18,662 nt of DNA from a virus (lineage: Duplodnaviria; Heunggongvirae; Uroviricota; Caudoviricetes), in the IMG/VR virus record IMGVR_UViG_3300010259_000013, positions 1 to 18,662 of that record. One strand, given 5' to 3'. Under the pieces are notes generated by a model, which saw only the letters and a list, made by a program, of their open reading frames with translations, was not told the origin of the DNA and ran no database searches. Of the stretch, positions 1,723 through 17,796 are shown piece by piece. The translations under genes and the position numbers were made by a program. The stretch's first letter is position 1. Each line of letters begins with the position of its first letter.

Positions 1723-1745
1723 ATTCATGAGGGCTGGAGGACGAC

Positions 1746-2021: not shown

Positions 2022-2031
2022 GGAGAACCGT

Positions 2032-2202: not shown

Positions 2203-2699
2203 CAGTGATGACGCTCAATCTCGTTGAAAAACAGCCAGCAACTATGCGCCGGATAATTGGTAAGCATCTGGCTGTCCCTCGCTGGCAGGAGACATGCGAT
2301 TATTATAATCAGATGATGGAACGCGAACGGCTAACGGTTTGCTTTCATGCGCAGTTAAAACAGCGTCACGCAACGATGCGTTTTGAAGAAATGAACGACG
2401 TCGAACGTGAACGACTGGTATGTGCAATTGATGAATTGCGCGGGGCATTCTCAAAACGCCGTCAGGTTGGCGCAAGTGAGTATGCATATATTAGTTTTTT
2501 AACAGTCAGTCAGCGTCGCACTTTATTTATGCACGCACGACTGACAGAAAAAGAATTTAACCAGCCATACTGGCGAATTAATGAAGAGTCATGTTACTGG
2601 CGTGATGCTTTATTCCGTGCATTACGTGAATTATTCAGCCTGTTTGAGTATGCACCGACAATTCTGACGTCGGTAAAACCAGAGCAATATCTGCATTAA
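2199..2699 (+). CDS. B: Replication protein B (P2 B-like)
   Basis: ORF 2193-2699. Starting at the third Met (2199) gives 166 aa, equal to P2 B, with GGAGG eight nt upstream. Synteny. Confidence 0.85.
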   Translation: MTVMTLNLVEKQPATMRRIIGKHLAVPRWQETCDYYNQMMERERLTVCFHAQLKQRHATMRFEEMNDVERERLVCAIDELRGAFSKRRQVGASEYAYISFLTVSQRRTLFMHARLTEKEFNQPYWRINEESCYWRDALFRALRELFSLFEYAPTILTSVKPEQYLH

Positions 2700-2720
2700 G
2701 TAATTAACCAGAGTTTTTAA

Positions 2721-2748
2721 CGCACTTAATTGTGCGGGGCTTTTTTTT
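2721..2748 (+). terminator. Candidate intrinsic terminator or attenuator after B (stem CGCAC-TTAATT-GTGCG, then GGGC and a T8 run)
   Basis: Short hairpin followed by eight consecutive T at 2741-2748. The stem is weak; it may allow partial read-through into the downstream early genes. Confidence 0.45.
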
Positions 2749-2762
2749 GCCTGGAGAAAGTC

Positions 2763-2987
2763 ATGCATACAGTTTCTGAAAATCAGTGCGGTAAATACGC
2801 ATTACTGCTGCAACAGGCCAGAACCGAAGCACAGGCCGACGCGGCGACGCGCTTTTCTTCTCATCTTGACGCCATGATTCGCCACATCACAAAGGCGGAG
2901 TTATCCCGCGTGGAGATAGTCGAGCTGCTCAGTCAGGAGTCGGAAAAATTTCACAATATCGGATTGTCTCGCGGGGAGGTACTTTGA
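2763..2987 (+). CDS. Hypothetical early protein (P2 orf80-83 family position)
   Basis: The ORF-track start at 2730 is TTG. The first ATG is 2763, with GGAG six nt upstream. Its stop overlaps the next start (ATGA-type coupling). Confidence 0.6.
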
Positions 2988-3289
2988 TGTCCTGTTCTCA
3001 TTCAGTTGTATTACTGAATAACGCCTTAAAAATCGCCGTTATGAAAAATGGCGATTTGTCTCTTATTCAACTTTGTCTTGATAAAGAAAAACGCGACATA
3101 ACTGAATCTGTTATCGCGATTTATCAGAATGAATTAAACCTCCTGTCTGATGTGGTCAATTTACTTGTTAAACGCGCTGTATTCCACAAGCAAATTTCCT
3201 CAGTGGATGAACTGACACAATTAACGACAGAAATCGCCAGCTATTGCGCTGATGAATTTAAGAAACTGAACGACAAAAGGAGCTGGTAA
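2987..3289 (+). CDS. Hypothetical early protein
   Basis: ATG at 2987 overlaps the upstream TGA; the stop overlaps the next ATG (TAATG). Synteny with the P2 early operon. Confidence 0.6.
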   Translation: MSCSHSVVLLNNALKIAVMKNGDLSLIQLCLDKEKRDITESVIAIYQNELNLLSDVVNLLVKRAVFHKQISSVDELTQLTTEIASYCADEFKKLNDKRSW

Positions 3290-3513
3290 TGCCGGACAAC
3301 GTGGATTTTATTCAGGAACAACAGGCTGAATTACTGGAGCGCCAGATTAACGCGGCAAGGGTAAAACATTATGGTGCTTCTGCGCTGGTTTGCGAAGAGT
3401 GTGATGCGCCAATACCTGCTGCCCGTCGTGCGGCTTATCCGTCAGCCACGAGTTGTGTTTCCTGTCAGTCAGTCTTTGAAGCAAAAAACAAACATTACCG
3501 GAGAACGGCATGA
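3289..3513 (+). CDS. TraR/DksA-family C4 zinc-finger protein
   Basis: 74 aa with CEEC ... CVSC (CxxC-x16-CxxC). AAAGGAG lies upstream. Translationally coupled to its neighbours. Confidence 0.7.
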   Translation: MPDNVDFIQEQQAELLERQINAARVKHYGASALVCEECDAPIPAARRAAYPSATSCVSCQSVFEAKNKHYRRTA

Positions 3514-3785
3514 GTATTCGTATTGAAATTGGCGAACGTTATGTCGTTACCAGTGACAGCTTTCAGTTTATTCTCCACGAGAAAAAGAGAGCGGAAAGCG
3601 GTAAAAACGCCGGTCAGGAATGGCTGGCGGTGGTTGGTTATTACCCGAAATTAAGTCAGCTCGTTTCCGGCCTGATGCATCACGATATTCTGACCGGAAG
3701 CGCAAAATCTTTTGCCGATTTAAACGCGCAGGTTGAGCAACTCAGCAGGCGTTGTTCAGAGGCTTTTGGCTCATATGGCCGTTAA
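3510..3785 (+). CDS. Hypothetical early protein immediately upstream of A
   Basis: 91-aa ORF. Start overlaps the upstream stop (ATGA); the 3' end overlaps the A start. Confidence 0.6.
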   Translation: MSIRIEIGERYVVTSDSFQFILHEKKRAESGKNAGQEWLAVVGYYPKLSQLVSGLMHHDILTGSAKSFADLNAQVEQLSRRCSEAFGSYGR

Positions 3786-6060
3786 AGCCTCCGGGCGTTT
3801 TGTCCCTCCGTCAGCATTTGCTGCAGGCACCGGTAAGGCGTTTACCGGTGCTTATGCATGGAACGCGCCACGCGAGGCTGTCGGGCGCGAAAGACCCCTT
3901 ACACGTGACGAGATGCGTCAGGTGCAAGGTGTTTTATCCACGATTAACCGCCTGCCTTACTTTTTGCGCTCGCTGTTTACGTCACGCTATGACTACATCC
4001 GGCGCAATAAAAGCCCGGTGCACGGGTTTTATTTCCTCACATCCACTTTTCAGCGTCGTTTATGGCCGCGCATTGAGCGTGTGAATCAGCGCCATGAAAT
4101 GAACACCGACGCGTCGATGCTGTTTCTGGCTGAGCGTGACCACTATGCGCGCCTGCCGGGGATGAATGACAAGGAGCTGAAAAAGTTTGCCGCCCGTATC
4201 TCATCGCAGCTTTTCATGATGTATGAGGAACTCTGCGATGCATGGGTTGATGCACATGGCGAGAAAGAATCGCTGTTTACGGATGAGGCGCAGGCGCATC
4301 TGTATGGTCATGTTGCTGGCGCTGCACGTGCTTTCAATATTTCCCCGCTCTACTGGAAAAAATACCGTAAAGGACAGATGACCACGAGGCAGGCATATTC
4401 TGCCATTGCCCGTCTGTTTAACGATGAGTGGTGGACTCATCAGCTTAAAGGCCAGCGTATGCGCTGGCATGAGGCGTTACTGATTGCTGTCGGGGAGGTC
4501 AATAAAGACCGTTCTCCTTATGCCAGTAAACATGCCATTCGTGATGTGCGTGCACGCCGCCAGGCAAATCTGGAATTTCTTAAATCGTGTGACCTCGAAA
4601 ACAGGGAAACCGGCGAGCGCATCGACCTTATCAGTAAGGTGATGGGCAGTATTTCTAATCCTGAAATTCGCCGGATGGAGCTGATGAACACCATCGCCGG
4701 TATTGAGCGTTACGCCGCCGCAGAGGGTGATGTGGGGATGTTTATCACGCTGACCGCGCCGTCAAAGTATCACCCGACACGTCAGGTCGGAAAAGGCGAA
4801 AGTAAAACCGTCCAGCTAAATCACGGCTGGAATGATGAGGCATTTAATCCAAAGGATGCGCAGCGTTATCTCTGCCGTATCTGGAGCCTGATGCGCACGG
4901 CATTCAAGGATAATGATTTACAGGTCTACGGTTTGCGAGTCGTCGAGCCACACCACGACGGAACGCCGCACTGGCATATGATGCTTTTTTGTAATCCACG
5001 CCAGCGTAACCAGATTATCGAAATCATGCGTCGCTATGCGCTCAAAGAGGATGGTGACGAAAGAGGAGCCGCGCGAAACCGTTTTCAGGCAAAACACCTT
5101 AACCGGGGCGGTGCTGCGGGATATATCGCGAAATACATCTCAAAAAACATCGATGGCTATGCACTGGATGGTCAGCTCGATAACGATACCGGCAGGCCGC
5201 TGAAAGACACCGCAGCGGCTGTTACCGCATGGGCGTCAACGTGGCGCATCCCGCAATTTAAAACGGTTGGCCTGCCGACAATGGGGGCTTACCGTGAACT
5301 ACGCAAATTGCCTCGCGGCGTCAGCATTGCTGATGAGTTTGACGAGCGCGTCGAGGCTGCACGCGCCGCCGCAGACAGTGGTGATTTTGCGTTGTATATC
5401 AGCGCGCAGGGCGGGGCAAATGTCCCGCGCGATTGTCAGACTGTCAGGGTCGCCCGTAGCCCGTCGGATGAAGTTAACGAGTACGAGGAAGAAGTCGAGA
5501 GAGTGGTCGGCATTTACGCGCCGCATCTCGGCGCGCGTCATATTCATATCACCAGAACGACGGACTGGCGCATTGTGCCGAAAGTTCCGGTCGTTGAGCC
5601 TTTGACTTTAAAAAGCGGCATCGCCGCGCCTCGGAGTCCTGTCAATAACTGTGGAAAACTCACCGGTGGTGATACTTCGTTACCGGCTCCCACACCTTCA
5701 GAGCACGCCGCAGCAGTGCTTAATCTGGTTGATGACGGTGTTATCGAATGGAATGACCAGGAGGTCGTGAAGGCGCTAAGGGGCGCATTAAAACACGGAC
5801 TGAGAACACCAAATCGTCAGCAAAGAGCCGGAAGCCCGTTAAAACCGCATGAAATAGCGCCATCGGCCAGAATGACCCGGTCGGAACGAATGCAAATTAC
5901 CCGTATCCGCGTTGACCTTGCTCAGAACGGTATCAGGCCGCAGCGATGGGTGCTTGAGGCGCTGGCGCGTGGCGCGACCGTAAATTATGACGGGAAAAAA
6001 TTCACGTATCCGGTCGCTGATGAGTGGCCGGGATTCTCAACAGTAATGGAGTGGAAATGA
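3775..6060 (+). CDS. A: Replication initiation protein A, rolling-circle HUH endonuclease (P2 A-like)
   Basis: ORF 3733-6060. Starting at ATG 3775 (MAVKASGRF...) gives 761 aa, matching P2 A. HUH-type motif PHWHMMLF and paired tyrosines YIAKYISK. In P2 the ori lies inside this gene; I could not place it from sequence. Confidence 0.92.
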   Translation: MAVKASGRFVPPSAFAAGTGKAFTGAYAWNAPREAVGRERPLTRDEMRQVQGVLSTINRLPYFLRSLFTSRYDYIRRNKSPVHGFYFLTSTFQRRLWPRIERVNQRHEMNTDASMLFLAERDHYARLPGMNDKELKKFAARISSQLFMMYEELCDAWVDAHGEKESLFTDEAQAHLYGHVAGAARAFNISPLYWKKYRKGQMTTRQAYSAIARLFNDEWWTHQLKGQRMRWHEALLIAVGEVNKDRSPYASKHAIRDVRARRQANLEFLKSCDLENRETGERIDLISKVMGSISNPEIRRMELMNTIAGIERYAAAEGDVGMFITLTAPSKYHPTRQVGKGESKTVQLNHGWNDEAFNPKDAQRYLCRIWSLMRTAFKDNDLQVYGLRVVEPHHDGTPHWHMMLFCNPRQRNQIIEIMRRYALKEDGDERGAARNRFQAKHLNRGGAAGYIAKYISKNIDGYALDGQLDNDTGRPLKDTAAAVTAWASTWRIPQFKTVGLPTMGAYRELRKLPRGVSIADEFDERVEAARAAADSGDFALYISAQGGANVPRDCQTVRVARSPSDEVNEYEEEVERVVGIYAPHLGARHIHITRTTDWRIVPKVPVVEPLTLKSGIAAPRSPVNNCGKLTGGDTSLPAPTPSEHAAAVLNLVDDGVIEWNDQEVVKALRGALKHGLRTPNRQQRAGSPLKPHEIAPSARMTRSERMQITRIRVDLAQNGIRPQRWVLEALARGATVNYDGKKFTYPVADEWPGFSTVMEWK

Positions 6061-6512
6061 TGGCAAAAATTCACGAGGTAAAGCTGCACGCAAAATATTT
6101 TGACCTTGTGCTGGAAGGAAAGAAACGCGCAGAGTTTCGGAAAAATGACCGTAATTATGAGCGCGGGGACACGTTGATTTTGCATGAATGGGTGCAGGGT
6201 GTGTTTACGGGGCGAAAGGTTGAAGCCCGGATAACAGATGTTACTGACCTGTCAGACTGGCTGGAAGATTATGTCTTGCTAAGTATTGAGCTGCTTAATA
6301 CGGGCGCATATAAGATTGTGAACTGGAAAGAACTTAGTGAGCGTGGCCTGGTATTCAGAATTAATCATGAAATTATGCATCAGCTCGGCCTTGCTGTTAT
6401 GTATGAACCAGAGACGGGGATGTCTGGCGGGGCAATGGTTGCCACGGATGGAGTATGGATCTATTCAGATGAACAGATGGAGCGTGCACAGCAAAACGGG
6501 TGGCTCGGATAA
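6057..6512 (+). CDS. DUF3850/ASCH-like protein
   Basis: Tandem ATGs at 6057 and 6060 overlap the A stop. The N-terminal segment IHEVKLHAKYFDLVLEGKKRAEFRKNDRNYERGDTL resembles the DUF3850 signature. Confidence 0.65.
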   Translation: MMAKIHEVKLHAKYFDLVLEGKKRAEFRKNDRNYERGDTLILHEWVQGVFTGRKVEARITDVTDLSDWLEDYVLLSIELLNTGAYKIVNWKELSERGLVFRINHEIMHQLGLAVMYEPETGMSGGAMVATDGVWIYSDEQMERAQQNGWLG

Positions 6513-6566
6513 TGCACAGAATACCAGGCGAGATACCGCACCATAAAAACTAAAAATATCAAGCTG

Positions 6567-6725
6567 ATGGCCATTGTTCACCGTCTACAGCAGATTATGG
6601 TCAACGAAAATCTGACGCCCGATGAACTAGTCGGGTGTGCCGAAATAGTCCGGGATAATTACGGGCGACTTAACTATATCGGTATCGGTCAGTCCAGAGT
6701 TGCGCCACCACCACGCAGACGATAG
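6567..6725 (+). CDS. Possible small ORF (52 aa), weak
   Basis: ATG at 6567 to TAG at 6723-6725; the stop sits five bp before palindromic element copy 1. No clear Shine-Dalgarno. Below the ORF-track size cutoff. Confidence 0.2.
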   Translation: MAIVHRLQQIMVNENLTPDELVGCAEIVRDNYGRLNYIGIGQSRVAPPPRRR

Positions 6726-6729
6726 AGAA

Positions 6730-6796
6730 CGCCGCCAGTCGTGAAACTTGTTTTCAGGGCTGGCGGCGTTGAACAACGAGCGAAGCGAGGCGTTAG
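6730..6796. repeat. Palindromic element copy 1: ~17-bp imperfect hairpin (CGCCGCCAG...CTGGCGGCG) plus conserved 28-bp tail ending GAGGCGTTAG
   Basis: Seen in sequence. Stem 6730-6768 with inner arm TGAAAC/GTTTTCA. About 80% identical to copy 2 over ~67 bp. Confidence 0.8.
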
Positions 6797-6954
6797 TTGA
6801 CAGTCATATTTTTACTGCGTTGGTGCTGGTTTTTGACGGTTGAAAGGAGTTAGCCCGGAGAGCAAAAGCCAACAACTTACAAATATTCAAAAGTAAGCTT
6901 CCTGTTGCTAACATAAGGTCGATTTTTTATGTGGATGATGCAAAAAGGATAGCT

Positions 6955-7686
6955 ATGGATATTGTAATCGCTTTTCTATCACTCGCTTTTTTCGTTGCTT
7001 TTTTCATCGGGTTAATCAAGCCATCACTGGTGCGGATGCCAAACCGTAAACGTGCAAGTGCGGTTTATCTCGGAGGTAGTTTTGCATTGAGCATAATTGG
7101 TTCAATACTCTACCCAACAGAAAAAAGCCAGCCAGTTGCTAAAACTGAAACAGCAACCGTAGCAGAACACCAGGCTCAAAAAACATTCGAATATACTGAA
7201 AAAACACTCAAGGAATATCGGAACGAGCCAAAGAAGACTCGACACGATATTGTGAATAGTTACATTAACTTTAAGAAAGTGCCAGTCACCGCATCAGATG
7301 CATTTTATGCCTGCATGAGTGAGTATACATTTACCAAAGATGATGAGTTGAAACTCGGTGATGTTCTTGGGTGGTGCTTTAATGATTATGAAAATGACCC
7401 GAATTCATTAAACAATAAAATCAATCTTGATACATTTCAGAGTAATTTTAGTGGTTGGGATGGTTCTTATCGGCCATTGGAAAAATTAATTAAAGATAAT
7501 ATGAACGATGATTCATCTTATAAACATGTGTCAACGGTATATCATTTGGTTTTGAATAAAGACCCGCACGCCATTGTGAAAACCACGTTTCGCGGCACTA
7601 ATGCTTATGGTGGAGTGGTAAAGCAGACCGTAGCGGCGCGCGTCAACGTGCGAACGGGGGAGGTCGATTCGATACTCGACAATTAA
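6955..7686 (+). CDS. Membrane-anchored cargo protein 1 (two predicted N-terminal TM helices, ~180-aa soluble C-terminal domain), unknown function
   Basis: The ORF-track start at 6931 is GTG. The first ATG is 6955, with AAAGGA five nt upstream. Hydrophobic stretches IVIAFLSLAFFVAFFIGLI and AVYLGGSFALSIIGSILY. AT-rich codon usage unlike the backbone. Confidence 0.7.
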   Translation: MDIVIAFLSLAFFVAFFIGLIKPSLVRMPNRKRASAVYLGGSFALSIIGSILYPTEKSQPVAKTETATVAEHQAQKTFEYTEKTLKEYRNEPKKTRHDIVNSYINFKKVPVTASDAFYACMSEYTFTKDDELKLGDVLGWCFNDYENDPNSLNNKINLDTFQSNFSGWDGSYRPLEKLIKDNMNDDSSYKHVSTVYHLVLNKDPHAIVKTTFRGTNAYGGVVKQTVAARVNVRTGEVDSILDN

Positions 7687-7702
7687 ACAATATAGTGACA
7701 TA

Positions 7703-7769
7703 CCCCGCCAGTACTGAAACTTGTTTTCAGTGCTGGCGGGGTTAAACAAAGAGCATCGTGAGGCGTTAG
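7703..7769. repeat. Palindromic element copy 2: near-perfect 39-bp palindrome (CCCCGCCAGTACTGAAAC-ttg-GTTTTCAGTGCTGGCGGGG) plus conserved tail ending GAGGCGTTAG
   Basis: Seen in sequence. 17-bp stem with one G-T wobble. Sits 16 bp after the stop of cargo protein 1 and 25 bp before the start of cargo protein 2. Confidence 0.8.
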
Positions 7770-7794
7770 ATTAAAATCATTTGAGGCAGATAAA

Positions 7795-8457
7795 ATGCTT
7801 TGGAAAATAATTTCTTTTTTATTAGTTGGTATTTGTATGTTTGCTTTCGGTTTATGGTTAGGCTCTATTCAGGCTGAATGGGCGAAACCAGAGCATAAAG
7901 ATGCTGTTGCTTATTTAGCAATGATCGGAGGATGGGTCTCAGGAATTGCAACGTCAGTCGCAGTAATTATTTCATTGTATGCGACATACCAAGCATCACA
8001 GAATAATGTTGAAAAATTAAGTTTAACCTATAAGCCTTACTCTAGCGTAGACAAAGAAAATTATTGTGCCAATATTGAGGTTGTAAATTTGCGGAGCGTT
8101 CCGGTACATATACAAGAGTTTTGCTTAGAATTTAGTGGGATAAATAATCATTTCAACATAAACGAACTAAAAGCAAATGGGAAGGAGATCCCGTATTCTT
8201 TATACCAAGTAGGAGAGAAATGGGAGTTTGCCTTCTATCCTTTTGCAAAGCCGGGAAATATGAGGTTCTATAAAAGCTTAAGTGAGAATGGTAATCCAAG
8301 TTTTCGTAGTGGTTTCTTTGTGGTTAAAACATCAATGAAACAATACAAATTAAGGATGCCTAATGAGCTTTTGGAAATTATGAAAATTAGCTATGAAAAG
8401 CAAATGGAAATACGGAAGAATTATAAGGAAATGCATGGTAAAGAGATGGGCTTTTAA
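7795..8457 (+). CDS. Membrane-anchored cargo protein 2 (two predicted N-terminal TM helices, ~150-aa soluble C-terminal domain), unknown function
   Basis: ATG at 7795 with GAGG eight nt upstream. Hydrophobic stretches IISFLLVGICMFAFGLWLG and AVAYLAMIGGWVSGIATSVAVIISLYA. AT-rich. Confidence 0.7.
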   Translation: MLWKIISFLLVGICMFAFGLWLGSIQAEWAKPEHKDAVAYLAMIGGWVSGIATSVAVIISLYATYQASQNNVEKLSLTYKPYSSVDKENYCANIEVVNLRSVPVHIQEFCLEFSGINNHFNINELKANGKEIPYSLYQVGEKWEFAFYPFAKPGNMRFYKSLSENGNPSFRSGFFVVKTSMKQYKLRMPNELLEIMKISYEKQMEIRKNYKEMHGKEMGF

Positions 8458-8580
8458 AACGCATTAACAAGCATCAAATTGCATGCGCATCCCTCCCCTG
8501 TTGTGTTTGAGCGCTGCCAGTGATGGTGTGCCTCTGGCGTGTTCGTGCAACTGCATTAAAACCGCCCCATGAAGCGGGCG

Positions 8581-8599
8581 GGCGAGGCGGGGAAAGCAT
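8581..8599. other. cos cohesive-end site (P2/186 type)
   Basis: GGCGAGGCGGGGAAAGCAT matches the 19-nt P2/186 cohesive end as I recall it (the P2 last base may be C). It sits in a GC-rich, backbone-like block upstream of the Q/P packaging genes. Confidence 0.7.
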
Positions 8600-8676
8600 T
8601 GCGCTGGACCTAGAGGCTTTGCTATCTTATTTGATGTTATTGGTATTTATTCAATTGAATGACCGTAGAGGATGAA

Positions 8677-9273
8677 ATGTGTCACATTGAAATTTTTCGG
8701 GAAGCACTAACAGTAAAGGATCCTATATATATATACAGGAAGTATCTTTTAGGGCATGACGTGTGGTATTTTAGAAATAAATTGGGAAAATTAAATTATG
8801 CAGAGGTTTATGATGATCTTAAGATACTTATGTCAGAAAGATTAGGTGTTCACATTAATAATGTTGCTATTGTTGGAAGTGCGAAGTTAGGATTTAGCAT
8901 AACACCCACAGAAGATAAAGCCTTTAGAGAGTTTAACGAAGATAGTGATATTGATATTGTTGTCGTATCCCCTGAGCTTTTTAGAAAGTCTTGGGATGCA
9001 TATCTTGATGTGGCAAAAAGACAAAGAATACCTTATTACTATAAAATCACAAGCAATATATTTAGAAAGTTTGTATCCTTAAAGAATATTGATTATAATA
9101 ATGAATTCTTTCGAGATTGGAAAAACAAAATAGAACCTTGTCAAAAAGATTTGCAGGTTATATATGAAGTACCGAACGAGATTAACTATAGAATATATGA
9201 GTCTTGGGAGGATGTGGAACGCTATCATGTTCAAGGCTTAGAAAAACTTAAAAACTTAATGGGGCAAATTTAA
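8677..9273 (+). CDS. Putative minimal nucleotidyltransferase (Pol-beta-superfamily-like) cargo protein
   Basis: ORF 8659-9273. The better start is ATG 8677 (AGAGGA upstream), giving 198 aa. Candidate NTase motif hhGS...DxD: VAIVGSAKLG (8875-8892) and DSDIDIVVV (8941-8958), with a longer-than-usual insert between. AT-rich. Stop is one nt before the next ATG. Confidence 0.55.
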   Translation: MCHIEIFREALTVKDPIYIYRKYLLGHDVWYFRNKLGKLNYAEVYDDLKILMSERLGVHINNVAIVGSAKLGFSITPTEDKAFREFNEDSDIDIVVVSPELFRKSWDAYLDVAKRQRIPYYYKITSNIFRKFVSLKNIDYNNEFFRDWKNKIEPCQKDLQVIYEVPNEINYRIYESWEDVERYHVQGLEKLKNLMGQI

Positions 9274-9274
9274 A

Positions 9275-10336
9275 ATGAGTATTGTGAGAAACGTTAAAGT
9301 TGAAAGCAGAGATATAAAGTGGGTATCTGATAATTTTAAGTCAGGCGAGTTGGTTATTGATAATTCATTTCAAAGGCGATATGTTTGGGTTAAAAAAGAT
9401 AAAGTATCGTTAATTGAATCAATACTCCTCGGTTATCCTATTCCTGAAGTTTATCTGTGGCAAAATAAGACCGATCCTGAAACAGGGCAGAGAATTCATT
9501 CTATTGTTGATGGGCAGCAACGATTAGGTGCGGTTTTTGATTTTGTAACAGATAAGTTTGCATTAGAAAAACGTTATCTAGAATATAAGGATTCTGATTT
9601 TTCTGGAAAAAAATTTTCTGAATTAGATACAGAACAAAAAGCTGTTATCTGGGGATATGATTTTTCAATTCGATTTATTAATAATGATATAACTATTGAT
9701 GACATTAAAAATTTATTTCTTCGTCTTAATAGAACTAATATAACTCTTAACCCTCAAGAGTTAAGGAATGCGGAATTTAATGGTGAGTTTATTAAATTGG
9801 CGAGCTCTTTGTCGGAACATCAATTTTGGACAGAGTTCAAGGTGTTCAACTCATCTGACTTGAGACGAATGCTTGATATCCAGTTTATTAGTACTATGTT
9901 AATATTTATTAGAATGGGTATTGCTGAAGAAACATCCCAGGCGGCTATTAACAAAGTTTATGATCAATATAATGAAACGTATCCAGAGGCTGAACAAGAT
10001 AAAGAGTTGTTCATGGATTTGCTAAATCTGCTTGCTAATATGATAAGGGGTAAGCAATCTCTTGAATATATTGCAAAAAGAAAAACACACCTCTATACAT
10101 TATTTACATTGTCTTTTTACTTATTTAAAACTGGTATTGATTCTGATAGTGGGTACCAAAATGTAGCTGTAAAATTGGATGAGTGGTTTAATAATTATAT
10201 AAATGAGGTGGATTTTGATGATGAGATGGTTAACGTTTTATTAAATGAATATCGTACGCTTTCCCAAGAAGGCGTGCAGAAAAAGCAAAATAGGCAACGG
10301 AGACTGGATATTTTGAAGGGTTATATAACCATGTAA
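9275..10336 (+). CDS. DUF262 / ParB-like (GmrS-like NTPase fold) protein lacking a recognisable DUF1524/HNH nuclease domain
   Basis: 353 aa. N-terminal FQRRYVW and the hallmark DGQQR motif (9508-9522) of the DUF262 family. No His-Me/HNH motif seen in the C-terminal ~150 aa. Translationally coupled to the upstream NTase-like gene. Confidence 0.75.
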   Translation: MSIVRNVKVESRDIKWVSDNFKSGELVIDNSFQRRYVWVKKDKVSLIESILLGYPIPEVYLWQNKTDPETGQRIHSIVDGQQRLGAVFDFVTDKFALEKRYLEYKDSDFSGKKFSELDTEQKAVIWGYDFSIRFINNDITIDDIKNLFLRLNRTNITLNPQELRNAEFNGEFIKLASSLSEHQFWTEFKVFNSSDLRRMLDIQFISTMLIFIRMGIAEETSQAAINKVYDQYNETYPEAEQDKELFMDLLNLLANMIRGKQSLEYIAKRKTHLYTLFTLSFYLFKTGIDSDSGYQNVAVKLDEWFNNYINEVDFDDEMVNVLLNEYRTLSQEGVQKKQNRQRRLDILKGYITM

Positions 10337-10340
10337 TTAT

Positions 10341-10367
10341 CCCCCCCCCCTAGTATTTAGGAGGGGG
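10341..10367. repeat. C10 homopolymer (10341-10350) facing a GGAGGGGG run (10360-10367); potential C/G stem-loop just 3' of the DUF262 gene
   Basis: Seen in sequence, four bp after the DUF262 stop. Could form a GC stem with an A/T-rich loop. No T-tract follows. Confidence 0.5.
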
Positions 10368-10445
10368 CATGGCTTATTGGCTAAAGTTTTTCAGGTTTAT
10401 TTATTGAACTTGAGAATATACTTATAATTAAACAAGAGGATTATG

Positions 10446-10469
10446 AATAAAAAGCCGCCCGCAGGCGGC
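10446..10469 (-). terminator. Intrinsic terminator for the leftward Q-P late operon
   Basis: On the minus strand: stem GCCGCC-tgcg-GGCGGC (plus 10454-10469) followed by TTTTTATT (plus 10446-10453), five bp after the Q stop. Confidence 0.7.
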
Positions 10470-10474
10470 GATGT

Positions 10475-11509
10475 TCAGCCGTTGTCAGTGTCCAGTGAGT
10501 AGTTTTTAAATCGGATGACCTCCTGACCGAGCCAGCCGTTTATCTCGCGGATCCTGTCCTGTAACGGGATAAGCTCATTGCGGACAAAGACCTTTGCCAC
10601 TTTCTCAATATCACCCAGCGACCCGACGTTCTCCGGCTTGCCACCCATCAACTGAAAGGGGATGCGGTGTGCGTCCAGCAGGTCAGCGGCGCTGGCTTTT
10701 TTGATATTAAAAAAATCGTCCTTCGTTGCCACTTCACTGAGGGGGATAATTTTAATGCCGTCGGCTTTCCCCTGCGGGGCATAGAGAAACAGATTTTTAA
10801 AGTTATTGCGGCCTTTCGACTTAACCATGTTTTCGCGGAGCATTTCGATATCGTTGCGATCCTGCACGGCATCAGTGACGTACATGATATATCCGGCATG
10901 CGCGCCGTTTTCGTAATACTTGCGGCGGAACAGCGTGGCTGATTCATTCAGCCAGGCAGAGTTAAGGGCGCTGAGATATTCCGGCAGACCGTACAGCTCC
11001 TGATTAATATCCGGCTCCAGCAGGTGAAACACGGAGCCGGGCGCGAAAGGTGTCGGCTCGTTGAAGGACGGCACCCACCAGTAAACATCCTCCTCCACGC
11101 CACGGCGGGTATATTTTGCCGGTGAGGTTTCCAGTCTGATGACCTTACCGGTGGTGCTGTAACGCTTTTCCAGAAACGCATTACCGAATACCAGAAAATC
11201 CAGCACAAAGCGGCTGAAATCCTGCTGAGAAAGCCACGGGTGTGGGATAAACGTTGAGGCCAGAATATTACGTTTGACGTAAATCGGTGAGCTGTGATGC
11301 ACGGCAGCACGCAGGCTTTTTGCCAGACCGGTAAAGCTGACCGGTGGCTCATACCATCTGCCGTTACTGATGCACTCGACGTAATCCAGAATGTCACGGC
11401 GGTCGAGTACCGGCACCGGCTCACCAAAGGTGAATGCCTCCATTTTCGGGGCGCTGGCGGTCATTTTTTTTGCCGCAGGTTGCGGTGTTTTCCCTTTTTT
11501 CTTGCTCAT
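10475..11509 (-). CDS. Q: Portal protein (P2 Q-like)
   Basis: 344-aa ORF, same length as P2 Q. Its ATG overlaps the P stop (ATGA). Synteny Q-P divergent from O-N-M-L. Confidence 0.92.
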   Translation of the reverse strand: MSKKKGKTPQPAAKKMTASAPKMEAFTFGEPVPVLDRRDILDYVECISNGRWYEPPVSFTGLAKSLRAAVHHSSPIYVKRNILASTFIPHPWLSQQDFSRFVLDFLVFGNAFLEKRYSTTGKVIRLETSPAKYTRRGVEEDVYWWVPSFNEPTPFAPGSVFHLLEPDINQELYGLPEYLSALNSAWLNESATLFRRKYYENGAHAGYIMYVTDAVQDRNDIEMLRENMVKSKGRNNFKNLFLYAPQGKADGIKIIPLSEVATKDDFFNIKKASAADLLDAHRIPFQLMGGKPENVGSLGDIEKVAKVFVRNELIPLQDRIREINGWLGQEVIRFKNYSLDTDNG

Positions 11510-13281
11510 CAGTAAAACTCCAGAATGGTGGATGTCAGCGGGGTGCTGATACCGGCGGTGAGTGGCTCATTTAACAGGGCGTGCATGGTCGCCCAGGCGA
11601 GGTCGGCGTGGCTGGCTTCCTCGCTACGGCTGGCCTCATAGGTGGCGCTGCGTCCGCTGCTGGTCATGGTCTTGCGGATAGCCATAAACGAGCTGGTGAT
11701 GTCGGTGGCGCTGACGTCATATTCCAGACAGCCACGGCGGATGACGTCTTTTGCCTTGAGCACCATTGCGGTTTTCATTTCCGGCGTGTAGCGGATATCG
11801 CGCGCGGCGGGATAGAACGAGCGCACGAGCTGGAACACGCCGACACCGAGGCCGGTGGCATCAATTCCGATGTATTCGACGTTGTATTTTTCGGTGAGTT
11901 TGCGGATGGATTCCGCCTGAGTGGCAAAGTCCATGCCTTTCCACTGGTGACGCTCAAGTATTCTGAATTTACCTCCGGCCACCACCGGCGGTGCCAGCAC
12001 CACGCATCCGGCGCTGTCGCCACGGTGTGACGGGTCGTAACCAATCCATACCGGGCGGGAGCCGAACGGATTGGCGGCAAACGGCGCATAGTCTTCCCAT
12101 TCTTCCAGCGTGTCGACCATGCAGCGTTGCAGCTCCTCGAACGGGAACACCGACGCCTTGTCGTCAACAAATTCACACATGAACAGGTTTTTAAAATCGT
12201 CGGCGCTGTTTTCACGTTTGAGCTGCTCAATGTCGAACAGCGTGCAGCCACCTTTCAGGGCGTCCTCAATGGTGACAATCTGCCGCCACTGGCCGTCCGC
12301 ACAGAGAAGCCCCCCGGCAAGGGCGTTATGACTGACGTCGATTTCCACGCGTTCGGCGGCGCTGGCGCGTCCCCGGTTGAACAGTTCACCCGACCAGAAT
12401 GGGTAGGCGTCGTGCGCCAGCGTGGACGGGGTGGAGAAATAGGTCGAGCGCAGGTGGCTCTGTGAGGCCATACCTGATGCCACCTTACGCAGTACCTGAA
12501 AATTCGGGATCCAGAAAATCTCGTCGACGTACAGGTCGCCGTTATGGCTCTGTGCGGTGTTGGAGTTGGTGCCGAGAAAAATCAGTTTTGCGCCGTTATT
12601 GCCCAGGACAATCGGGTCACCGGTCAGGTCAACGTCAACCAGCCGGGCAAAGGCGATGATGTATTCGCGGAACACATACGCCTGCGTTTTACTGGCCGAC
12701 AGAAAAATCTGGTTATGACCGGTTTTCAGGGCGCGCAGCAGCGCCTCGCGGGAAAAATAAAACGTCGCGCCAATCTGGCGGGATTTCAGGATATCGCGGA
12801 TGCGGTGCTCAAGCCCGGCGCGATACCAGTGCAACTGATAGTCGAAAGACTGCTCAAAGAAAATCTGCTCCAGCTTTTCGATGGCCTCGTCACTGAAAAA
12901 ATTCTTTTTCGGTTTGCGCCGCCCGCCTTTGTTGCGGTTAGCGACGTTCGGATTAAGGTCTGCCTCGTTGCCGGTCTGGCTGTAGCGGTTGACCCGTGCC
13001 AGTCGTTCAATCTGGCGTCCCAGCAGGTCAATTTCCTTGAAGTCACTGCCGGTTTTCTGCGGTTTGATGATGAGCTGGGTCAGCCGCGCTTCCAGGCTCA
13101 TTTCCACACGGCTGATGGGGGCAACACTGTCCCAGCCGTCGCGCTGTTTCCAGCTCTGCACCGTCGGGCGTTTCATCTGCAACATGGCGGCAATCTGCGG
13201 CACGGAAAACCCCTGCCAGTACAGCAGCGCCGCCTGACGACGCGGGTCGTGTAAAAGAGTGGTGTCTGTGGTGATGGTCAT
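11509..13281 (-). CDS. P: Terminase large (ATPase) subunit (P2 P-like)
   Basis: The ORF-track start at 13311 is TTG. The first ATG is 13281 (MTITTDTTLL...), giving 590 aa, matching P2 P. Confidence 0.92.
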   Translation of the reverse strand: MTITTDTTLLHDPRRQAALLYWQGFSVPQIAAMLQMKRPTVQSWKQRDGWDSVAPISRVEMSLEARLTQLIIKPQKTGSDFKEIDLLGRQIERLARVNRYSQTGNEADLNPNVANRNKGGRRKPKKNFFSDEAIEKLEQIFFEQSFDYQLHWYRAGLEHRIRDILKSRQIGATFYFSREALLRALKTGHNQIFLSASKTQAYVFREYIIAFARLVDVDLTGDPIVLGNNGAKLIFLGTNSNTAQSHNGDLYVDEIFWIPNFQVLRKVASGMASQSHLRSTYFSTPSTLAHDAYPFWSGELFNRGRASAAERVEIDVSHNALAGGLLCADGQWRQIVTIEDALKGGCTLFDIEQLKRENSADDFKNLFMCEFVDDKASVFPFEELQRCMVDTLEEWEDYAPFAANPFGSRPVWIGYDPSHRGDSAGCVVLAPPVVAGGKFRILERHQWKGMDFATQAESIRKLTEKYNVEYIGIDATGLGVGVFQLVRSFYPAARDIRYTPEMKTAMVLKAKDVIRRGCLEYDVSATDITSSFMAIRKTMTSSGRSATYEASRSEEASHADLAWATMHALLNEPLTAGISTPLTSTILEFY

Positions 13282-13454
13282 GAATACCTCGCCGTGATGA
13301 ATACACGGCAAGGCTACTGAGTCGCGCCCCGCGATTCGCTAAGGTGCTGTTGTGTCAGTGATAAGCCATCCGGGACTGATGGCGGAGGATGCGCATCGTC
13401 GGGAAACTGATGCCGACATGTGACTCCTCTAATCACTATTCAGGACTCCTGACA
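13282..13454. promoter_or_regulatory. Divergent late-promoter region (PP leftward, PO rightward), presumably Ogr-activated
   Basis: 173-bp intergenic region between divergent P and O. One partial Ogr-like TGT-N12-CCA element at 13351-13368. Hexamers could not be assigned confidently. Confidence 0.45.
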
Positions 13455-14309
13455 ATGGCAAAAAAAGTCTCAAAATTCTTTCGTATCGGCGTTGAGGGTG
13501 ACACCTGTGACGGGCGTGTCATCAGTGCGCAGGATATTCAGGAAATGGCCGAAACCTTTGACCCGCGAGTCTATGGTTGCCGCATTAACCTGGAACATCT
13601 ACGCGGCATTTTGCCTGACGGTATTTTTAAGCGTTATGGCGATGTGGCCGAACTGAAGGCCGAAAAGATTGACGATGATTCGGCGCTGAAAGGCAAATGG
13701 GCGCTGTTTGCGAAAATCACCCCGACCGATGACCTTATCGCGATGAACAAGGCCGCGCAGAAGGTCTACACCTCAATGGAAATTCAGCCGAACTTTGCCA
13801 ATACCGGCAAATGTTATCTGGTGGGGCTGGCCGTCACCGATGACCCGGCAAGCCTCGGCACGGAATACCTGGAATTCTGCCGCACGGCAAAACACAACCC
13901 CCTGAACCGCTTCAAATTAAGCCCTGAAAACCTGATTTCAGTGGCAACGCCTGTTGAGCTGGAATTTGAAGACCTGCCTGAAACCGTGTTCACCGCCCTG
14001 ACCGAAAAGGTGAAATCCATTTTTGGCCGCAAACAGGCCAGCGATGACGCCCGTCTGAATGATGTGCATGAAGCGGTGACCGCTGTTGCTGAACATGTGC
14101 AGGAAAAACTGAGCGCCACTGAGCAGCGCCTCGCTGAGATGGAAACCGCCTTTTCCGCACTTAAGCAGGATGTGACTGACAGGGCGGATGAAACCAGCCA
14201 GGCATTCACCCGCCTGAAAAACAGTCTTGACCACACCGAAAGTCTGACCCAGCAGCGCCGCAGCAAGGCCACCGGTGGTGGCGGTGACGCCCTGATGACG
14301 AACTGCTGA
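13455..14309 (+). CDS. O: Capsid scaffolding protein (P2 O-like)
   Basis: ORF 13389-14309. ATG at 13455 (MAKKVSKFF...) gives 284 aa, matching P2 O. Confidence 0.9.
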   Translation: MAKKVSKFFRIGVEGDTCDGRVISAQDIQEMAETFDPRVYGCRINLEHLRGILPDGIFKRYGDVAELKAEKIDDDSALKGKWALFAKITPTDDLIAMNKAAQKVYTSMEIQPNFANTGKCYLVGLAVTDDPASLGTEYLEFCRTAKHNPLNRFKLSPENLISVATPVELEFEDLPETVFTALTEKVKSIFGRKQASDDARLNDVHEAVTAVAEHVQEKLSATEQRLAEMETAFSALKQDVTDRADETSQAFTRLKNSLDHTESLTQQRRSKATGGGGDALMTNC

Positions 14310-14367
14310 CCGGCGTCAGTCAGTCCGGGAAAACCTTCACGATTAACCCTTAATTTCAGGAAAAACT

Positions 14368-15441
14368 ATGCGCCAGGAAACCCGCTTTAAATTTAATGCC
14401 TACCTGTCCCGTGTTGCCGAACTGAACGGCATCGACGCCGGTGATGTGTCGAAAAAATTCACCGTTGAACCGTCGGTCACCCAGACCCTGATGAACACCA
14501 TGCAGGAGTCCTCTGACTTTCTGACCCGCATCAACATTGTGCCGGTCAGCGAAATGAAAGGGGAAAAAATTGGCATCGGTGTCACCGGCTCCATTGCCAG
14601 CACCACCGACACCGCCGGTGGCACCGAGCGTCAGCCGAAGGACTTCTCGAAGCTGGCGTCAAACAAGTACGAATGCGACCAGATTAACTTCGATTTTTAT
14701 ATCCGCTACAAAACGCTTGACCTGTGGGCGCGTTATCAGGATTTCCAGCTCCGTGTCCGTAACGCCATTATCAAACGCCAGTCCCTTGATTTCATCATGG
14801 CCGGTTTTAACGGCGTGAAGCGTGCCGAAACCTCTGACCGCAGCAGCAATCCGATGCTGCAGGATGTGGCGGTCGGCTGGCTGCAGAAATACCGCAATGA
14901 AGCCCCGGCGCGCGTGATGAGTAAGGTCACTGACGAGGAAGGCCGCACCACCTCTGAGGTTATCCGCGTGGGTAAGGGCGGTGATTATGCCAGCCTTGAT
15001 GCACTGGTGATGGATGCGACCAACAACCTGATTGAGCCGTGGTATCAGGAAGACCCTGACCTTGTGGTGATTGTGGGGCGTCAGTTACTGGCGGACAAGT
15101 ATTTCCCCATCGTTAACAAGGAGCAGGACAACAGCGAAATGCTGGCCGCTGACGTCATCATCAGCCAGAAACGCATCGGTAACCTGCCGGCGGTACGCGT
15201 CCCGTACTTCCCGGCGGATGCGATGCTCATCACGAAGCTGGAAAACCTGTCCATCTACTACATGGATGACAGCCATCGCCGAGTGATTGTGGAAAACCCG
15301 AAACTCGACCGCGTGGAGAACTACGAGTCAATGAACATTGATTACGTGGTGGAAGACTACGCCGCCGGTTGTCTGGTGGAAAAAATTAAGGTCGGTGATT
15401 TCTCCACACCGGCTAAAGCGACCGCAGAGCCGGGAGCGTAA
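14368..15441 (+). CDS. N: Major capsid protein (P2 N-like)
   Basis: 357-aa ORF, same length as P2 N. Synteny O-N-M-L. Confidence 0.92.
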   Translation: MRQETRFKFNAYLSRVAELNGIDAGDVSKKFTVEPSVTQTLMNTMQESSDFLTRINIVPVSEMKGEKIGIGVTGSIASTTDTAGGTERQPKDFSKLASNKYECDQINFDFYIRYKTLDLWARYQDFQLRVRNAIIKRQSLDFIMAGFNGVKRAETSDRSSNPMLQDVAVGWLQKYRNEAPARVMSKVTDEEGRTTSEVIRVGKGGDYASLDALVMDATNNLIEPWYQEDPDLVVIVGRQLLADKYFPIVNKEQDNSEMLAADVIISQKRIGNLPAVRVPYFPADAMLITKLENLSIYYMDDSHRRVIVENPKLDRVENYESMNIDYVVEDYAAGCLVEKIKVGDFSTPAKATAEPGA

Positions 15442-15444
15442 CCG

Positions 15445-16188
15445 ATGACGAGTCCCGCACAGCGCCACATGATGCGGGTCTCGGCAGCGATAACCGCGCA
15501 GCGGGAAGCCGCCCCGCTGCGACATGCAACTGTCTATGAGCAGATGCTGGTTAAGCTCGCCGCAGACCAGCGCACACTGAAAGCGATTTATTCAAAAGAG
15601 CTGAAGGCCGCGAAAAAACGCGAACTGCTGCCGTTCTGGTTGCCGTGGGTGAACGGCGTGCTGGAGCAGGGCAAAGGTGCACAGGATGACATTCTGATGA
15701 CGGTCATGCTGTGGCGTCTGGATACCGGCGATATTGCCGGTGCGCTGGAGATTGCCCGTTATGCCCTGAAGTACGGTCTGACCATGCCGGGTAAACACTG
15801 CCGCACCCCGCCGTACATGTTCACCGAGGAAGTGGCGCTTGCGGCCATGCGCGCTCACGCTGCCGGTGAGTCTGTGGATCCCCGCCTGCTGATGGACACC
15901 CTCGAACTGACCGCCACGGCTGACATGCCTGATGAAGTGCGCGCAAAGCTGCACAAAATCACCGGTCTGTTTCTGCGTGACGCTGGTAATGCCGCAGGGG
16001 CGCTGGCACACCTGCAACGTGCGACACAGCTCGACTGTCAGGCAGGCGTCAAAAAAGAGATTGAACGACTGGAGCGGGAGCTGAAACCGAAGCCGGAGCC
16101 GCAGCCCAAAGCGGCCACCCGCGCCCCGCGTAAGACCCGGAGCGTGACACCGGCAAAACGTGGACGCCCGAAAAAGAAAGCCAGTTAA
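15445..16188 (+). CDS. M: Terminase small/endonuclease subunit (P2 M-like)
   Basis: 247-aa ORF, same length as P2 M. Synteny. Confidence 0.9.
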   Translation: MTSPAQRHMMRVSAAITAQREAAPLRHATVYEQMLVKLAADQRTLKAIYSKELKAAKKRELLPFWLPWVNGVLEQGKGAQDDILMTVMLWRLDTGDIAGALEIARYALKYGLTMPGKHCRTPPYMFTEEVALAAMRAHAAGESVDPRLLMDTLELTATADMPDEVRAKLHKITGLFLRDAGNAAGALAHLQRATQLDCQAGVKKEIERLERELKPKPEPQPKAATRAPRKTRSVTPAKRGRPKKKAS

Positions 16189-16287
16189 CAACCGAATGCG
16201 CCCCGCGCCAGGGCGGCACGCCGGTCAGTGAGGGTGAATCACCTGACACTGCACCGGCGTCCACCGCCCGACTTTTCAGAGGTAGTC

Positions 16288-16797
16288 ATGATGACGCTGA
16301 TTATTCCGCGAAAGGAGGCTCCCGTGTCCGGTGAGGGTACGGTGGTCATCCCGCAACCGGCAGGCGACGAGCCGGTGATTAAAAACACGTTCTTTTTTCC
16401 CGATATCGACCCGAAGCGCGTCCGGGAACGTATGCGCCTTGAGCAGACCGTCGCCCCCGCCCGTCTGCGTGAGGCCATCAAGTCAGGCATGGCAGAGACG
16501 AATGCGGAGCTGTACGAGTACCGCGAACAGAAAATTGCCGCCGGTTTTACGCGTCTGGCGGACGTCCCGGCGGACGACATCGACGGTGAAAGCATCAAGG
16601 TTTTTTACTACGAGCGCGCCGTGTGTGCGATGGCGACCGCGTCGCTTTATGAGCGTTACCGCGGCGTGGATGCCAGTGCGAAAGGCGACAAGAAGGCCGA
16701 CAGCATTGACAGCACCATTGATGAGCTGTGGCGGGATATGCGCTGGGCGGTGGCGCGTATCCAGGACAAGCCGCGCTGCATCGTGAGTCAAATCTGA
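16288..16797 (+). CDS. L: Head completion/stabilisation protein (P2 L-like)
   Basis: ORF 16228-16797. ATG at 16288 (GAGG upstream) gives 169 aa, matching P2 L. Confidence 0.88.
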   Translation: MMTLIIPRKEAPVSGEGTVVIPQPAGDEPVIKNTFFFPDIDPKRVRERMRLEQTVAPARLREAIKSGMAETNAELYEYREQKIAAGFTRLADVPADDIDGESIKVFYYERAVCAMATASLYERYRGVDASAKGDKKADSIDSTIDELWRDMRWAVARIQDKPRCIVSQI

Positions 16798-17000
16798 TGA
16801 AGACCTTTGCGCTACAGGGCGACACGCTCGACGCCATCTGTGTCCGGTATTACGGGCGCACTGAGGGCGTGGTCGAAGCCGTGCTCGCCGCAAATCCGGG
16901 ACTGGCTGAACTGGGTGCGGTGCTGCCACACGGCACCGCCGTCGAACTGCCCGACGTTCAGACCGCGCCCGTGGCTGAAACTGTCAATCTGTGGGAGTAA
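16797..17000 (+). CDS. X: Tail protein X (P2 X-like)
   Basis: ATG at 16797 overlaps the L stop, giving 67 aa (MKTFALQGDTLDAICVRYYG...), matching P2 X. Confidence 0.85.
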   Translation: MKTFALQGDTLDAICVRYYGRTEGVVEAVLAANPGLAELGAVLPHGTAVELPDVQTAPVAETVNLWE

Positions 17001-17003
17001 CGC

Positions 17004-17285
17004 ATGACAGCAGAAGAAAAAAGCGTCCTGTCGCTTTTCATGATTGGGGTGCTGATTGTTGTCGGCAAGGTGCTTGCCGGTGGTGAACCCATCACCCCGC
17101 GTCTGTTTATCGGGCGCATGTTGCTCGGTGGTTTTGTCTCGATGGTTGCCGGTGTTGTTCTGGTGCAGTTCCCTGACCTGTCACTGCCTGCGGTGTGCGG
17201 CATCGGCTCCATGCTGGGTATCGCCGGTTATCAGGTGATTGAGATTGCCATTCAGCGCCGTTTTAAGGGCAGGGGGAAACCGTAA
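17004..17285 (+). CDS. Y: Holin (P2 Y-like)
   Basis: 93 aa, same length as P2 Y. Hydrophobic helices with a charged C-terminus (RRFKGRGKP). First gene of the lysis cassette. Confidence 0.9.
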   Translation: MTAEEKSVLSLFMIGVLIVVGKVLAGGEPITPRLFIGRMLLGGFVSMVAGVVLVQFPDLSLPAVCGIGSMLGIAGYQVIEIAIQRRFKGRGKP

Positions 17286-17782
17286 TGCCGGTAATTAACA
17301 CGCATCAGAATATCGCCGCCTTTCTCGACATGCTGGCCGTGTCCGAAGGGACGGCGAATCATCCGCTGACGAAAAACCGGGGCTATGACGTGATAGTCAC
17401 CGGACTGGACGGGAAGCCGGAAATTTTCACCGACTACAGTGACCACCCGTTCGCGCATGGCCGACCGGCGAAGGTGTTTAACCGTCGCGGTGAAAAATCC
17501 ACGGCCTCCGGTCGCTATCAGCAGCTTTACCTGTTCTGGCCGCACTACCGCAAACAGCTTGCCCTGCCTGATTTCAGTCCGTTGTCACAGGACAGACTCG
17601 CCATTCAGTTGATCCGCGAACGCGGTGCACTGGATGACATCCGGGCGGGACGCATTGAGCGCGCCATTTCACGCTGTCGCAATATCTGGGCGTCCCTGCC
17701 GGGTGCCGGTTACGGTCAGCGTGAGCATTCACTGGAAAAACTGGTCACCGTCTGGCGTACCGCTGGCGGCGTACCGGCTTAA
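17285..17782 (+). CDS. K: Endolysin (P2 K-like)
   Basis: 165 aa, same length as P2 K. ATG overlaps the Y stop (TAATG). Confidence 0.9.
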   Translation: MPVINTHQNIAAFLDMLAVSEGTANHPLTKNRGYDVIVTGLDGKPEIFTDYSDHPFAHGRPAKVFNRRGEKSTASGRYQQLYLFWPHYRKQLALPDFSPLSQDRLAIQLIRERGALDDIRAGRIERAISRCRNIWASLPGAGYGQREHSLEKLVTVWRTAGGVPA

Positions 17783-17796
17783 ACGGAGTAAACACC

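Follow-up and report, generated by a model that had tools for sequence, protein, structure and literature searches.

Proteins built on DUF262, a nucleoside triphosphatase (NTPase) domain of the ParB fold, are understood mechanistically just where they drive a fused His-Me nuclease, as in GmrSD, BrxU, and SspE. In these three systems nuclease activity lies in DUF1524, and DUF262 is the NTPase or sensor (PMC10952713). DUF262 systems without DUF1524 have also been described, namely Menshen, Dazbog, and PD-T4-2 (PMC10952713, PMC12065111). The Menshen protein NsnA consists of a ParB-DUF262 domain and a helical DNA-binding domain (ParBDB), and has been argued to be the sensor of its system (Li et al. 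2025, PMC12065111); ParBDB is also the middle domain of GmrSD and SspE and is present in DndB (PMC12065111). PD-T4-2, from E. coli ECOR65, combines a nuclease-less DUF262 protein with a HEPN protein and has been validated against T4 (PMC9519451, PMC10952713). How such nuclease-less DUF262 proteins signal is the question on which the present locus bears. It is a two-gene cassette in IMG/VR virus record IMGVR_UViG_3300010259_000013 (positions 1 to 18,662, the whole stretch analysed here and referred to below as the window), in which the gene for an NsnA-type DUF262 protein follows that of a nucleotidyltransferase (NTase)-like protein. We interpret the pair as a candidate defence system of two genes, as yet without a name, that joins an NsnA-type DUF262 sensor to a new partner. 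It is the smallest nuclease-less DUF262 case found in this work (two genes and approximately 1.7 kb, carried by E. coli mobile elements, with clear catalytic residues). The cassette and its domains are as follows.

8659 to 9273, plus strand: minimal nucleotidyltransferase-like partner, 204 amino acids (aa) from the ATG at 8659
9275 to 10336, plus strand: NsnA-like DUF262 protein, 353 aa, ATG start
9275 to 9784, plus strand: ParB/Srx-fold DUF262 NTPase domain, approximately residues 1–170, with motifs I (QRxxxW), II (DGQQR), and III (FxxxN / NPQELRNAEF)
9785 to 10333, plus strand: all-helical C-terminal domain, approximately residues 171–353, homologous to NsnA-C ("ParBDB")

The open reading frame (ORF) at 9275–10336 is a genuine DUF262 gene, as had been proposed in an earlier reading made from the sequence alone (hereafter the sequence-only reading). 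Residues 27–168 of its product match Pfam GmrSD_N/DUF262 (E = 3.5e-22), and FQRRYVW (residue 32), DGQQR (residues 79–83), and FLRLN (residue 148) are all invariant across 41 relatives. Motifs I to III are intact and, judged by these residues, the domain looks enzymatically competent. The C-terminal half was correctly described as helical: in an AlphaFold2 model (pLDDT 85–97) it contains helices only, and there is no strand past residue 135. The same reading called it low-complexity, which it is not, as its residue entropy is 4.05 bits versus 4.03 bits for the N-terminal half and many of its residues are invariant among the 41 relatives (including R197, R198, D201, Q222, N226, Y229, D230, N233, H272, Y274, and G333). 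The best structural matches of the N-terminal part are BrxU and SspE. Foldseek also identifies ParB, Noc, and KorB as fold neighbours (probability 0.8–0.99, identity 11–14%); in these cytidine triphosphate (CTP)-dependent clamps, too, a helical DNA-binding region comes after an N-domain of the ParB fold, but the cassette protein is of the DGQQR type rather than carrying the GxxR CTP motif, and it sits in defence cargo rather than in a partition operon.

Among PADLOC models, the best match of the DUF262 protein is NsnA (E = 2.8e-40, 137 bits), with residues 7–343 aligned to model positions 46–371 of 385. The second match, PD-T4-2_A, is much weaker (E = 5.9e-18, 63 bits). Because the NsnA match spans both domains, the window protein has a described nuclease-less architecture and is better viewed in this way than as an anomalous GmrSD, which is how it was first framed. 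The statement that DUF262 domains are nearly always coupled to DUF1524 was likewise too strong, given Menshen, Dazbog, and PD-T4-2, and a missing nuclease is in itself not surprising.

That the nuclease is missing is itself borne out. There is no match to DUF1524, HNH, or HEPN at E ≤ 1 in the DUF262 protein or in any of its 41 relatives, and neither a His-Me nor any other nuclease is found among its fold matches. The neighbouring NTase-like protein also lacks a His-Me/DUF1524 match at E ≤ 1. When all ORFs within 5 kb were clustered over 55 loci, no conserved third gene was found and no nuclease family recurred near the pair, save restriction-modification (R-M) enzymes in a minority of loci. 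With no fused, cryptic, or adjacent His-Me/DUF1524 nuclease here or in relatives, the output is not a GmrSD-type nuclease, and the helical C-domain is not a nuclease. The window protein does share the QR, DGQQR, and FxxxN motifs of the N-terminal DUF262 domain of GmrSD, BrxU, and SspE, and the structural matches to BrxU and SspE would fit a type IV restriction enzyme of the GmrSD type that has degenerated, with its DUF1524 nuclease hidden in the C-terminus or encoded just beyond the locus. However, those enzymes are 560–770 aa long with a DUF1524 His-Me nuclease, whereas the window protein has approximately 350 aa. Its C-terminal half has no beta-hairpin and a single conserved histidine (H272), which lies within a helix. 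The family (833 homologue matches) is also not decaying, as it is uniformly approximately 350 aa long and highly conserved. Together with the absence of DUF1524 and HNH from all 41 members and of a recurrent nuclease from the 55 neighbourhoods, this makes a degenerate GmrSD extremely unlikely.

What the DUF262 gene does have is a constant neighbour. One genome per species was scanned, and each locus was searched with profiles of both proteins. In each of the 53 loci where the DUF262 protein is a close relative (200 bits or more) and sufficient DNA is available upstream, the NTase-like partner is immediately upstream on the same strand; these loci are distributed over Gamma-, Beta-, and Alphaproteobacteria, Bacteroidota, Bacillota, Myxococcota, and Marinimicrobia. 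Searching viral contigs from the partner side, a DUF262 gene is directly downstream in all eight loci; one of these belongs to a second P2-like phage, where the pair occupies the gpA-gpQ slot as it does in the window. A gene of approximately 195–200 aa directly precedes DUF262 in a Shewanella chromosomal locus, in an E. coli lambdoid prophage (the pair lying between the replication genes and the Q antiterminator, in the nin-Q region), and in a Klebsiella P4-like satellite, where the pair lies between psu and int at the P4 hotspot. The two genes most often overlap, by 4 or 14 nt; in the window, the DUF262 start codon is 1 nt past the partner stop, a spacing that suggests translational coupling.

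Pairwise identities of the two proteins are correlated across the 53 loci (r = 0.86, Mantel p approximately 0.001). The two proteins are also found joined: in one Firmicutes phage contig (L098, 4866–6752) they form a single 628-aa ORF, while in the near-identical L097 the genes are separate (4866–5615 and 5618–5899), and the 392-aa metagenomic protein P0345 is a chimera of an NTase N-terminal part and a shortened DUF262 protein. Based on the adjacency from both sides, the co-variation, and the natural fusion and chimera, the genes at 8659/8677–9273 and 9275–10336 almost certainly form one functional unit. The NTase-like gene had been noted as the only neighbour of the DUF262 gene; it is indeed the sole conserved one, but far from being there by chance it is an obligate partner that co-evolves with the DUF262 protein, and it is most likely the source or the controller of the output.

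This pairing separates the cassette from the described nuclease-less systems. NsnA of Menshen resembles the window protein in its ParB-DUF262 domain with QRxxxW, DGxQR, and FxxxN motifs, its helical ParBDB domain, and its lack of DUF1524, but the ABC-ATPase NsnB and the effector NsnC are absent from the window and the 53 related loci. No gene lies between 10336 and gpQ at 10475, no NsnB ABC/OLD-type ATPase recurs in the related loci, and an NsnC effector (inPIN plus a nuclease or toxin domain) is not found as a third gene in the window or in related loci. As these defining components are absent, the cassette is not a Menshen system. PD-T4-2 is similar in consisting of two genes built on a nuclease-less DUF262 protein; however, its partner is HEPN, while the cassette partner gives no PD-T4-2_B, PF18735-type, or HEPN match, and its gene order is reversed relative to the cassette, in which the partner is upstream. 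An incomplete Menshen or PD-T4-2 system was considered and ruled out, since the partner genes of both are absent in all relatives. For Dazbog, no DzbA or DzbB model is among the PADLOC matches at E ≤ 1 for either protein. The pair is also not identical to WonAB or GrwAB of V. cholerae, as judged from their published description. A full-text literature search found no description of a DUF262-nucleotidyltransferase pair. The main text of the Menshen study mentions further DUF262-centred systems, this pair not among them (PMC12065111), and the main text of a 2026 survey of P2/P4 hotspots mentions neither DUF262 nor Menshen (PMC13586616).

The partner gene can be read from the ATG at 8659, although the ATG at 8677 (198 aa), which follows a GAGGA Shine-Dalgarno sequence, is the more likely start. 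The 204-aa protein has no Pfam or PADLOC match except a weak NTase signal, its family (1552 clusters at 50% identity) is without a Pfam or PADLOC model, and a PDB sequence search with the partner profile returned nothing meaningful. Its best fold matches are minimal nucleotidyltransferases (MNTs): HI0073, 1wot, 8xeh_E, and 5yep. G73, S74, D97, and D99, which constitute a GS...DxD motif, are invariant in 42 partner sequences, and strands predicted at residues 69–72 and 98–103 carry the hG[GS] and DxD motifs. By this invariance, the partner looks enzymatically competent.

More distant NsnA-like proteins (below 200 bits) do not have the NTase-like partner, and a different gene lies directly downstream of them. 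In nine loci this gene encodes a RelA_SpoT-domain protein (Pfam E = 5e-19), in seven loci a protein of approximately 205–214 aa with a conserved IRNALAH motif (RNxxxH, HEPN-like), and in another sister clade a RiboL-PSP HEPN protein as in PD-T4-2 (HEPN_RiboL-PSP E = 1.8e-18). Two Menshen-like loci (L087 and L088) have NsnB/NsnC downstream of the NsnA-like protein. The first two arrangements are found at the following positions.

L063, 5986 to 8030, and L065, 5980 to 8078 (also L064, L066, L067, L069, L073, and L080): NsnA-like DUF262 protein of approximately 337 aa, then a RelA_SpoT-domain protein of approximately 345 aa
L071, 5938 to 7635, and L074, 5941 to 7624 (also L062, L072, and L076 to L078): DUF262 protein and RNxxxH protein of approximately 205–214 aa

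The combination of DUF262 with RelA_SpoT appears to be a further DUF262 pair that has not been described, its partner being toxSAS-like; that partner also has a weak PADLOC PDC-S33 match. The HEPN likeness of the RNxxxH protein is one of motif, as it has no Pfam or PADLOC match and no hhalign match to the RiboL-PSP HEPN pair. In a further distant DUF262 clade (approximately 361 aa; L079 and L081 to L083), an apparent operon consists of Dcm, NgoMIV, a 362-aa protein with the N-terminal sequence ILGNGFTIDF, and DUF262 (e.g. L081, 3034–7032).

This modular exchange of partners supports DUF262/ParBDB as a common sensor or switch, with the second gene as the output. A sensor role is further indicated by the NsnA profile match, by the published argument for NsnA (PMC12065111), and by the pairing of relatives with toxin-type enzymes. 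We infer complex formation, the division of roles, and the target, and give a probability of about 0.45 to the reading in which the DUF262 protein is the sensor and the NTase-like partner the effector. The whole would be a prophage-borne two-gene anti-phage module without a DNA nuclease. The 353-aa protein would act as an NsnA-type sensor or switch, its ParB/Srx-fold DUF262 domain binding and hydrolysing nucleoside triphosphate (NTP) and its helical ParBDB domain binding nucleic acid, while the partner of approximately 200 aa would be a minimal pol-beta-fold nucleotidyltransferase acting in complex with it. Detection of phage DNA, or of a phage-induced DNA state, by the DUF262 protein would license the NTase to modify a target by nucleotidylation. 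The most plausible target is an RNA or a protein on which translation or replication depends, and infection would be stopped in an abortive-infection-like way.

Several observations weigh against this assignment. A third invariant catalytic carboxylate is not found in the 42 partner sequences (E181 is just mostly E/D), and the partner has no match in PADLOC 2.0.0. Both proteins are acidic (pI approximately 5.3–6.4), unlike many nucleic-acid-targeting toxins. MNT proteins, the closest folds of the partner, act as regulators and not as effectors in HEPN-MNT systems. The analogy with the sister clades is also imperfect, since the NTase-like partner has no detectable homology to the RelA_SpoT partner (hhalign probability 0.1%) and lies upstream whereas the toxin-like partners lie downstream; it may not fill the same functional slot.

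In the main alternative, the roles would be reversed, as in a type VII toxin-antitoxin system. The MNT-like partner would then be the regulator, nucleotidylating (e.g. AMPylating) or otherwise restraining the DUF262/ParBDB protein, and the latter would be the effector, either as a DNA clamp gated by NTP that obstructs replication or transcription or as a cryptic DNase of the ParB fold. The cassette resembles HEPN-MNT systems in the hG[GS]...DxD motif and MNT fold matches of the partner and in the small protein being encoded first in an apparently translationally coupled bicistron, as in antitoxin-toxin operons, and the tight co-variation and natural fusion imply direct contact of the two proteins. 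The invariant H272-x-Y274 and other tyrosines of the C-domain could serve as modification sites. A clamp would be in keeping with the fold neighbours ParB, Noc, and KorB, and a published classification counts ParB-fold domains from R-M contexts among DNase domains (PMC3710099). However, compared with HEPN-MNT systems, the partner has a longer GS-to-DxD spacing (22 residues) and additional helices at both termini, and it is paired with a DUF262 protein rather than with HEPN. The conserved K/R-x3-H272-x-Y274 does not fit the HEPN Rx4-6H toxin motif, and neither a HEPN match (in the 41 DUF262 proteins) nor any other known toxin domain is detectable. Where a DUF262 protein does belong to a cutting system (GmrSD, BrxU, SspE), it is DUF1524 that cuts. 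As the case is one of analogy, we consider this reversal rather unlikely.

In a minority of loci the pair lies in or next to type II 5-methylcytosine (m5C) R-M operons. Of the 55 loci, 16 have a C5-cytosine methyltransferase within 5 kb, 12 a NaeI-like restriction enzyme, and 10 Vsr; Pfam confirmed the domain identities (PF00145, PF03852, NaeI, NgoFVII, and EcoO109I). These genes are often on the same strand as the pair and tightly packed with it, in L052 in the order Dcm-NaeI-Vsr-NTase-DUF262; L027, along with L023, is a further such case. Examples that include Vsr are listed here.

L052, 2892 to 7041
L057, 2450 to 6957
L047, 5274 to 9427
L023, 1624 to 7035
L098, 1149 to 6752

The restriction enzymes differ by lineage (NaeI, an NgoFVII-type HNH+B3 enzyme, EcoO109I, and one without family assignment). 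One Firmicutes phage locus combines Vsr, two Dcm genes, EcoO109I, and the pair. Neither a methyltransferase nor a restriction enzyme lies near the pair in approximately 70% of loci, among them the window and the copies in P4 and lambdoid elements, so the R-M genes are not part of the minimal unit. Their adjacency could be ordinary defence-island clustering, or it could hint that m5C status matters to the DUF262 sensor. A stronger form of the latter is that the pair is an accessory to m5C systems, with DUF262 reading m5C status (as a self or a foreign mark) in the way that SspE reads phosphorothioate. The pair would then work with a Dcm-type methyltransferase or a restriction enzyme encoded beside it or elsewhere in the host (E. 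coli Dcm/Vsr), and the nuclease would be supplied in trans. At least four types of restriction enzyme imply independent associations, the distant DUF262 clade with Dcm and NgoMIV is a further case, and operons of ParB, HEPN, and a DNA methylase offer a precedent (PMC3710099). On the other hand, clustering in islands is usual for defence genes, and the count of 16 loci overstates the number of independent events because many of them are alphaproteobacterial and related to one another; most copies of the pair stand without such companions. We regard an accessory role of this kind as clearly unlikely.

With the sensor-effector reading still preferred, a broader proposal may be made, tentatively. 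NsnA-type ParB/DUF262 proteins might be general, modular sensors of DNA state wired to interchangeable non-nuclease outputs (MNT-like NTase, RelA/SpoT-like, and HEPN-like). The pair might then represent a form of immunity not seen before, in which a ParB-fold protein gated by NTP, and possibly reading m5C as a self-mark, directs nucleotidylation of a cellular or viral target or is itself switched by nucleotidylation, halting infection without DNA cutting. As a whole this is possible but doubtful. The cassette is tractable for asking what the DUF262 sensor detects, how the signal passes to a non-nuclease partner, and what role cytosine methylation has.

The window is a P2-like (Peduovirus) prophage with a backbone approximately 97% identical to annotated P2-like phages. 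The backbone gene order is integrase, C repressor, cox, B, gpA, the hotspot, gpQ portal, gpP, O, N, M, L, X, holin, and lysin. The features around the cassette are as follows.

3733 to 6060: gpA, named by 97% identity to annotated Peduovirus genomes
6024 to 6512: ASCH/DUF3850 (PUA-like) domain fused to DUF7415, first gene past gpA, overlapping the gpA end
6061 to 10474: P2 gpA-gpQ (cos-proximal) cargo hotspot holding the cassette, delimited by composition and flanking gene identity
6931 to 7686: predicted membrane protein, 251 aa, hotspot cargo
7795 to 8457: predicted membrane protein, hotspot cargo
8500 to 8604: conserved element of approximately 100 nt just 5' of the cassette, with near-identical DNA matches
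10341 to 10367, plus strand: C10 tract / GGAGGGGG inverted repeat just past the DUF262 stop, as read from the sequence
10475 to 11509, minus strand: gpQ portal, named by 97% identity to annotated Peduovirus genomes

The gpA-gpQ interval is the anti-phage cargo hotspot of P2, in which old and tin are located in P2 itself, and the psu-int interval of P4 is a defence hotspot as well (Rousset et al. 2022, PMC9122126). The hotspot of the window has a GC content of 31–42%, compared to 52–61% for the structural genes, and contains five genes, the last two being the cassette. From the P2, P4, and lambdoid hotspots, the low-GC cargo, and the R-M neighbourhoods, we conclude that the pair is very probably an anti-phage defence system. 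Were its role outside immunity, the pair would work for the prophage itself (for example in ParB-like DNA handling, in controlling lysogeny, or in regulating superinfection) or would be a selfish addiction module that does nothing against phages. The ParB/KorB/Noc-like fold would suit such a role, and DndB-type relatives are transcriptional regulators (weak DndB matches are present in 3/41 family members). However, unrelated mobile elements (P2, P4, lambdoid, and Firmicutes phage) and islands in the chromosomes of many phyla carry the same pair, always at variable cargo positions and not in core phage modules, and its closest profile, NsnA, is that of a validated defence protein; a non-defence role is thus very unlikely. 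Being strictly conserved, widespread, compact, and present in three classical E. coli mobile-element hotspots, the pair makes a strong candidate that lends itself readily to testing. Defence annotation tools now report just an orphan "NsnA"; validation of the pair would give them a further named system.

The cassette DNA itself has no near-identical copy in 5426 complete E. coli genomes or 50,697 phage records. The only part of 8500–10450 with near-identical DNA elsewhere is the 8500–8604 element, which is present in P2-like phages and in 1588/5426 of the complete E. coli genomes and contains a GC-rich hairpin at 8562–8581. It probably belongs to the backbone, at the edge of a module, and may be a recombination boundary of the hotspot. 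At the other end, the inverted repeat at 10341–10367 may be the 3' end of the cassette; it is without a T-run, and a terminator scan gave no call there. Its C10 homopolymer could be a stem-loop or a slippage-prone tract. The two membrane-protein genes (6931–7686 and 7795–8457) are not beside the pair in relatives and are therefore probably independent cargo. Their products belong to phrog_3403 and phrog_16957, respectively, both families without assigned function. A 79-nt direct repeat (81% identical) at 6729–6807 and 7702–7780 flanks the gene for the 251-aa membrane protein. Each copy holds an 18–19-bp hairpin, and both resemble terminators or the boundaries of modules exchanged as cargo.

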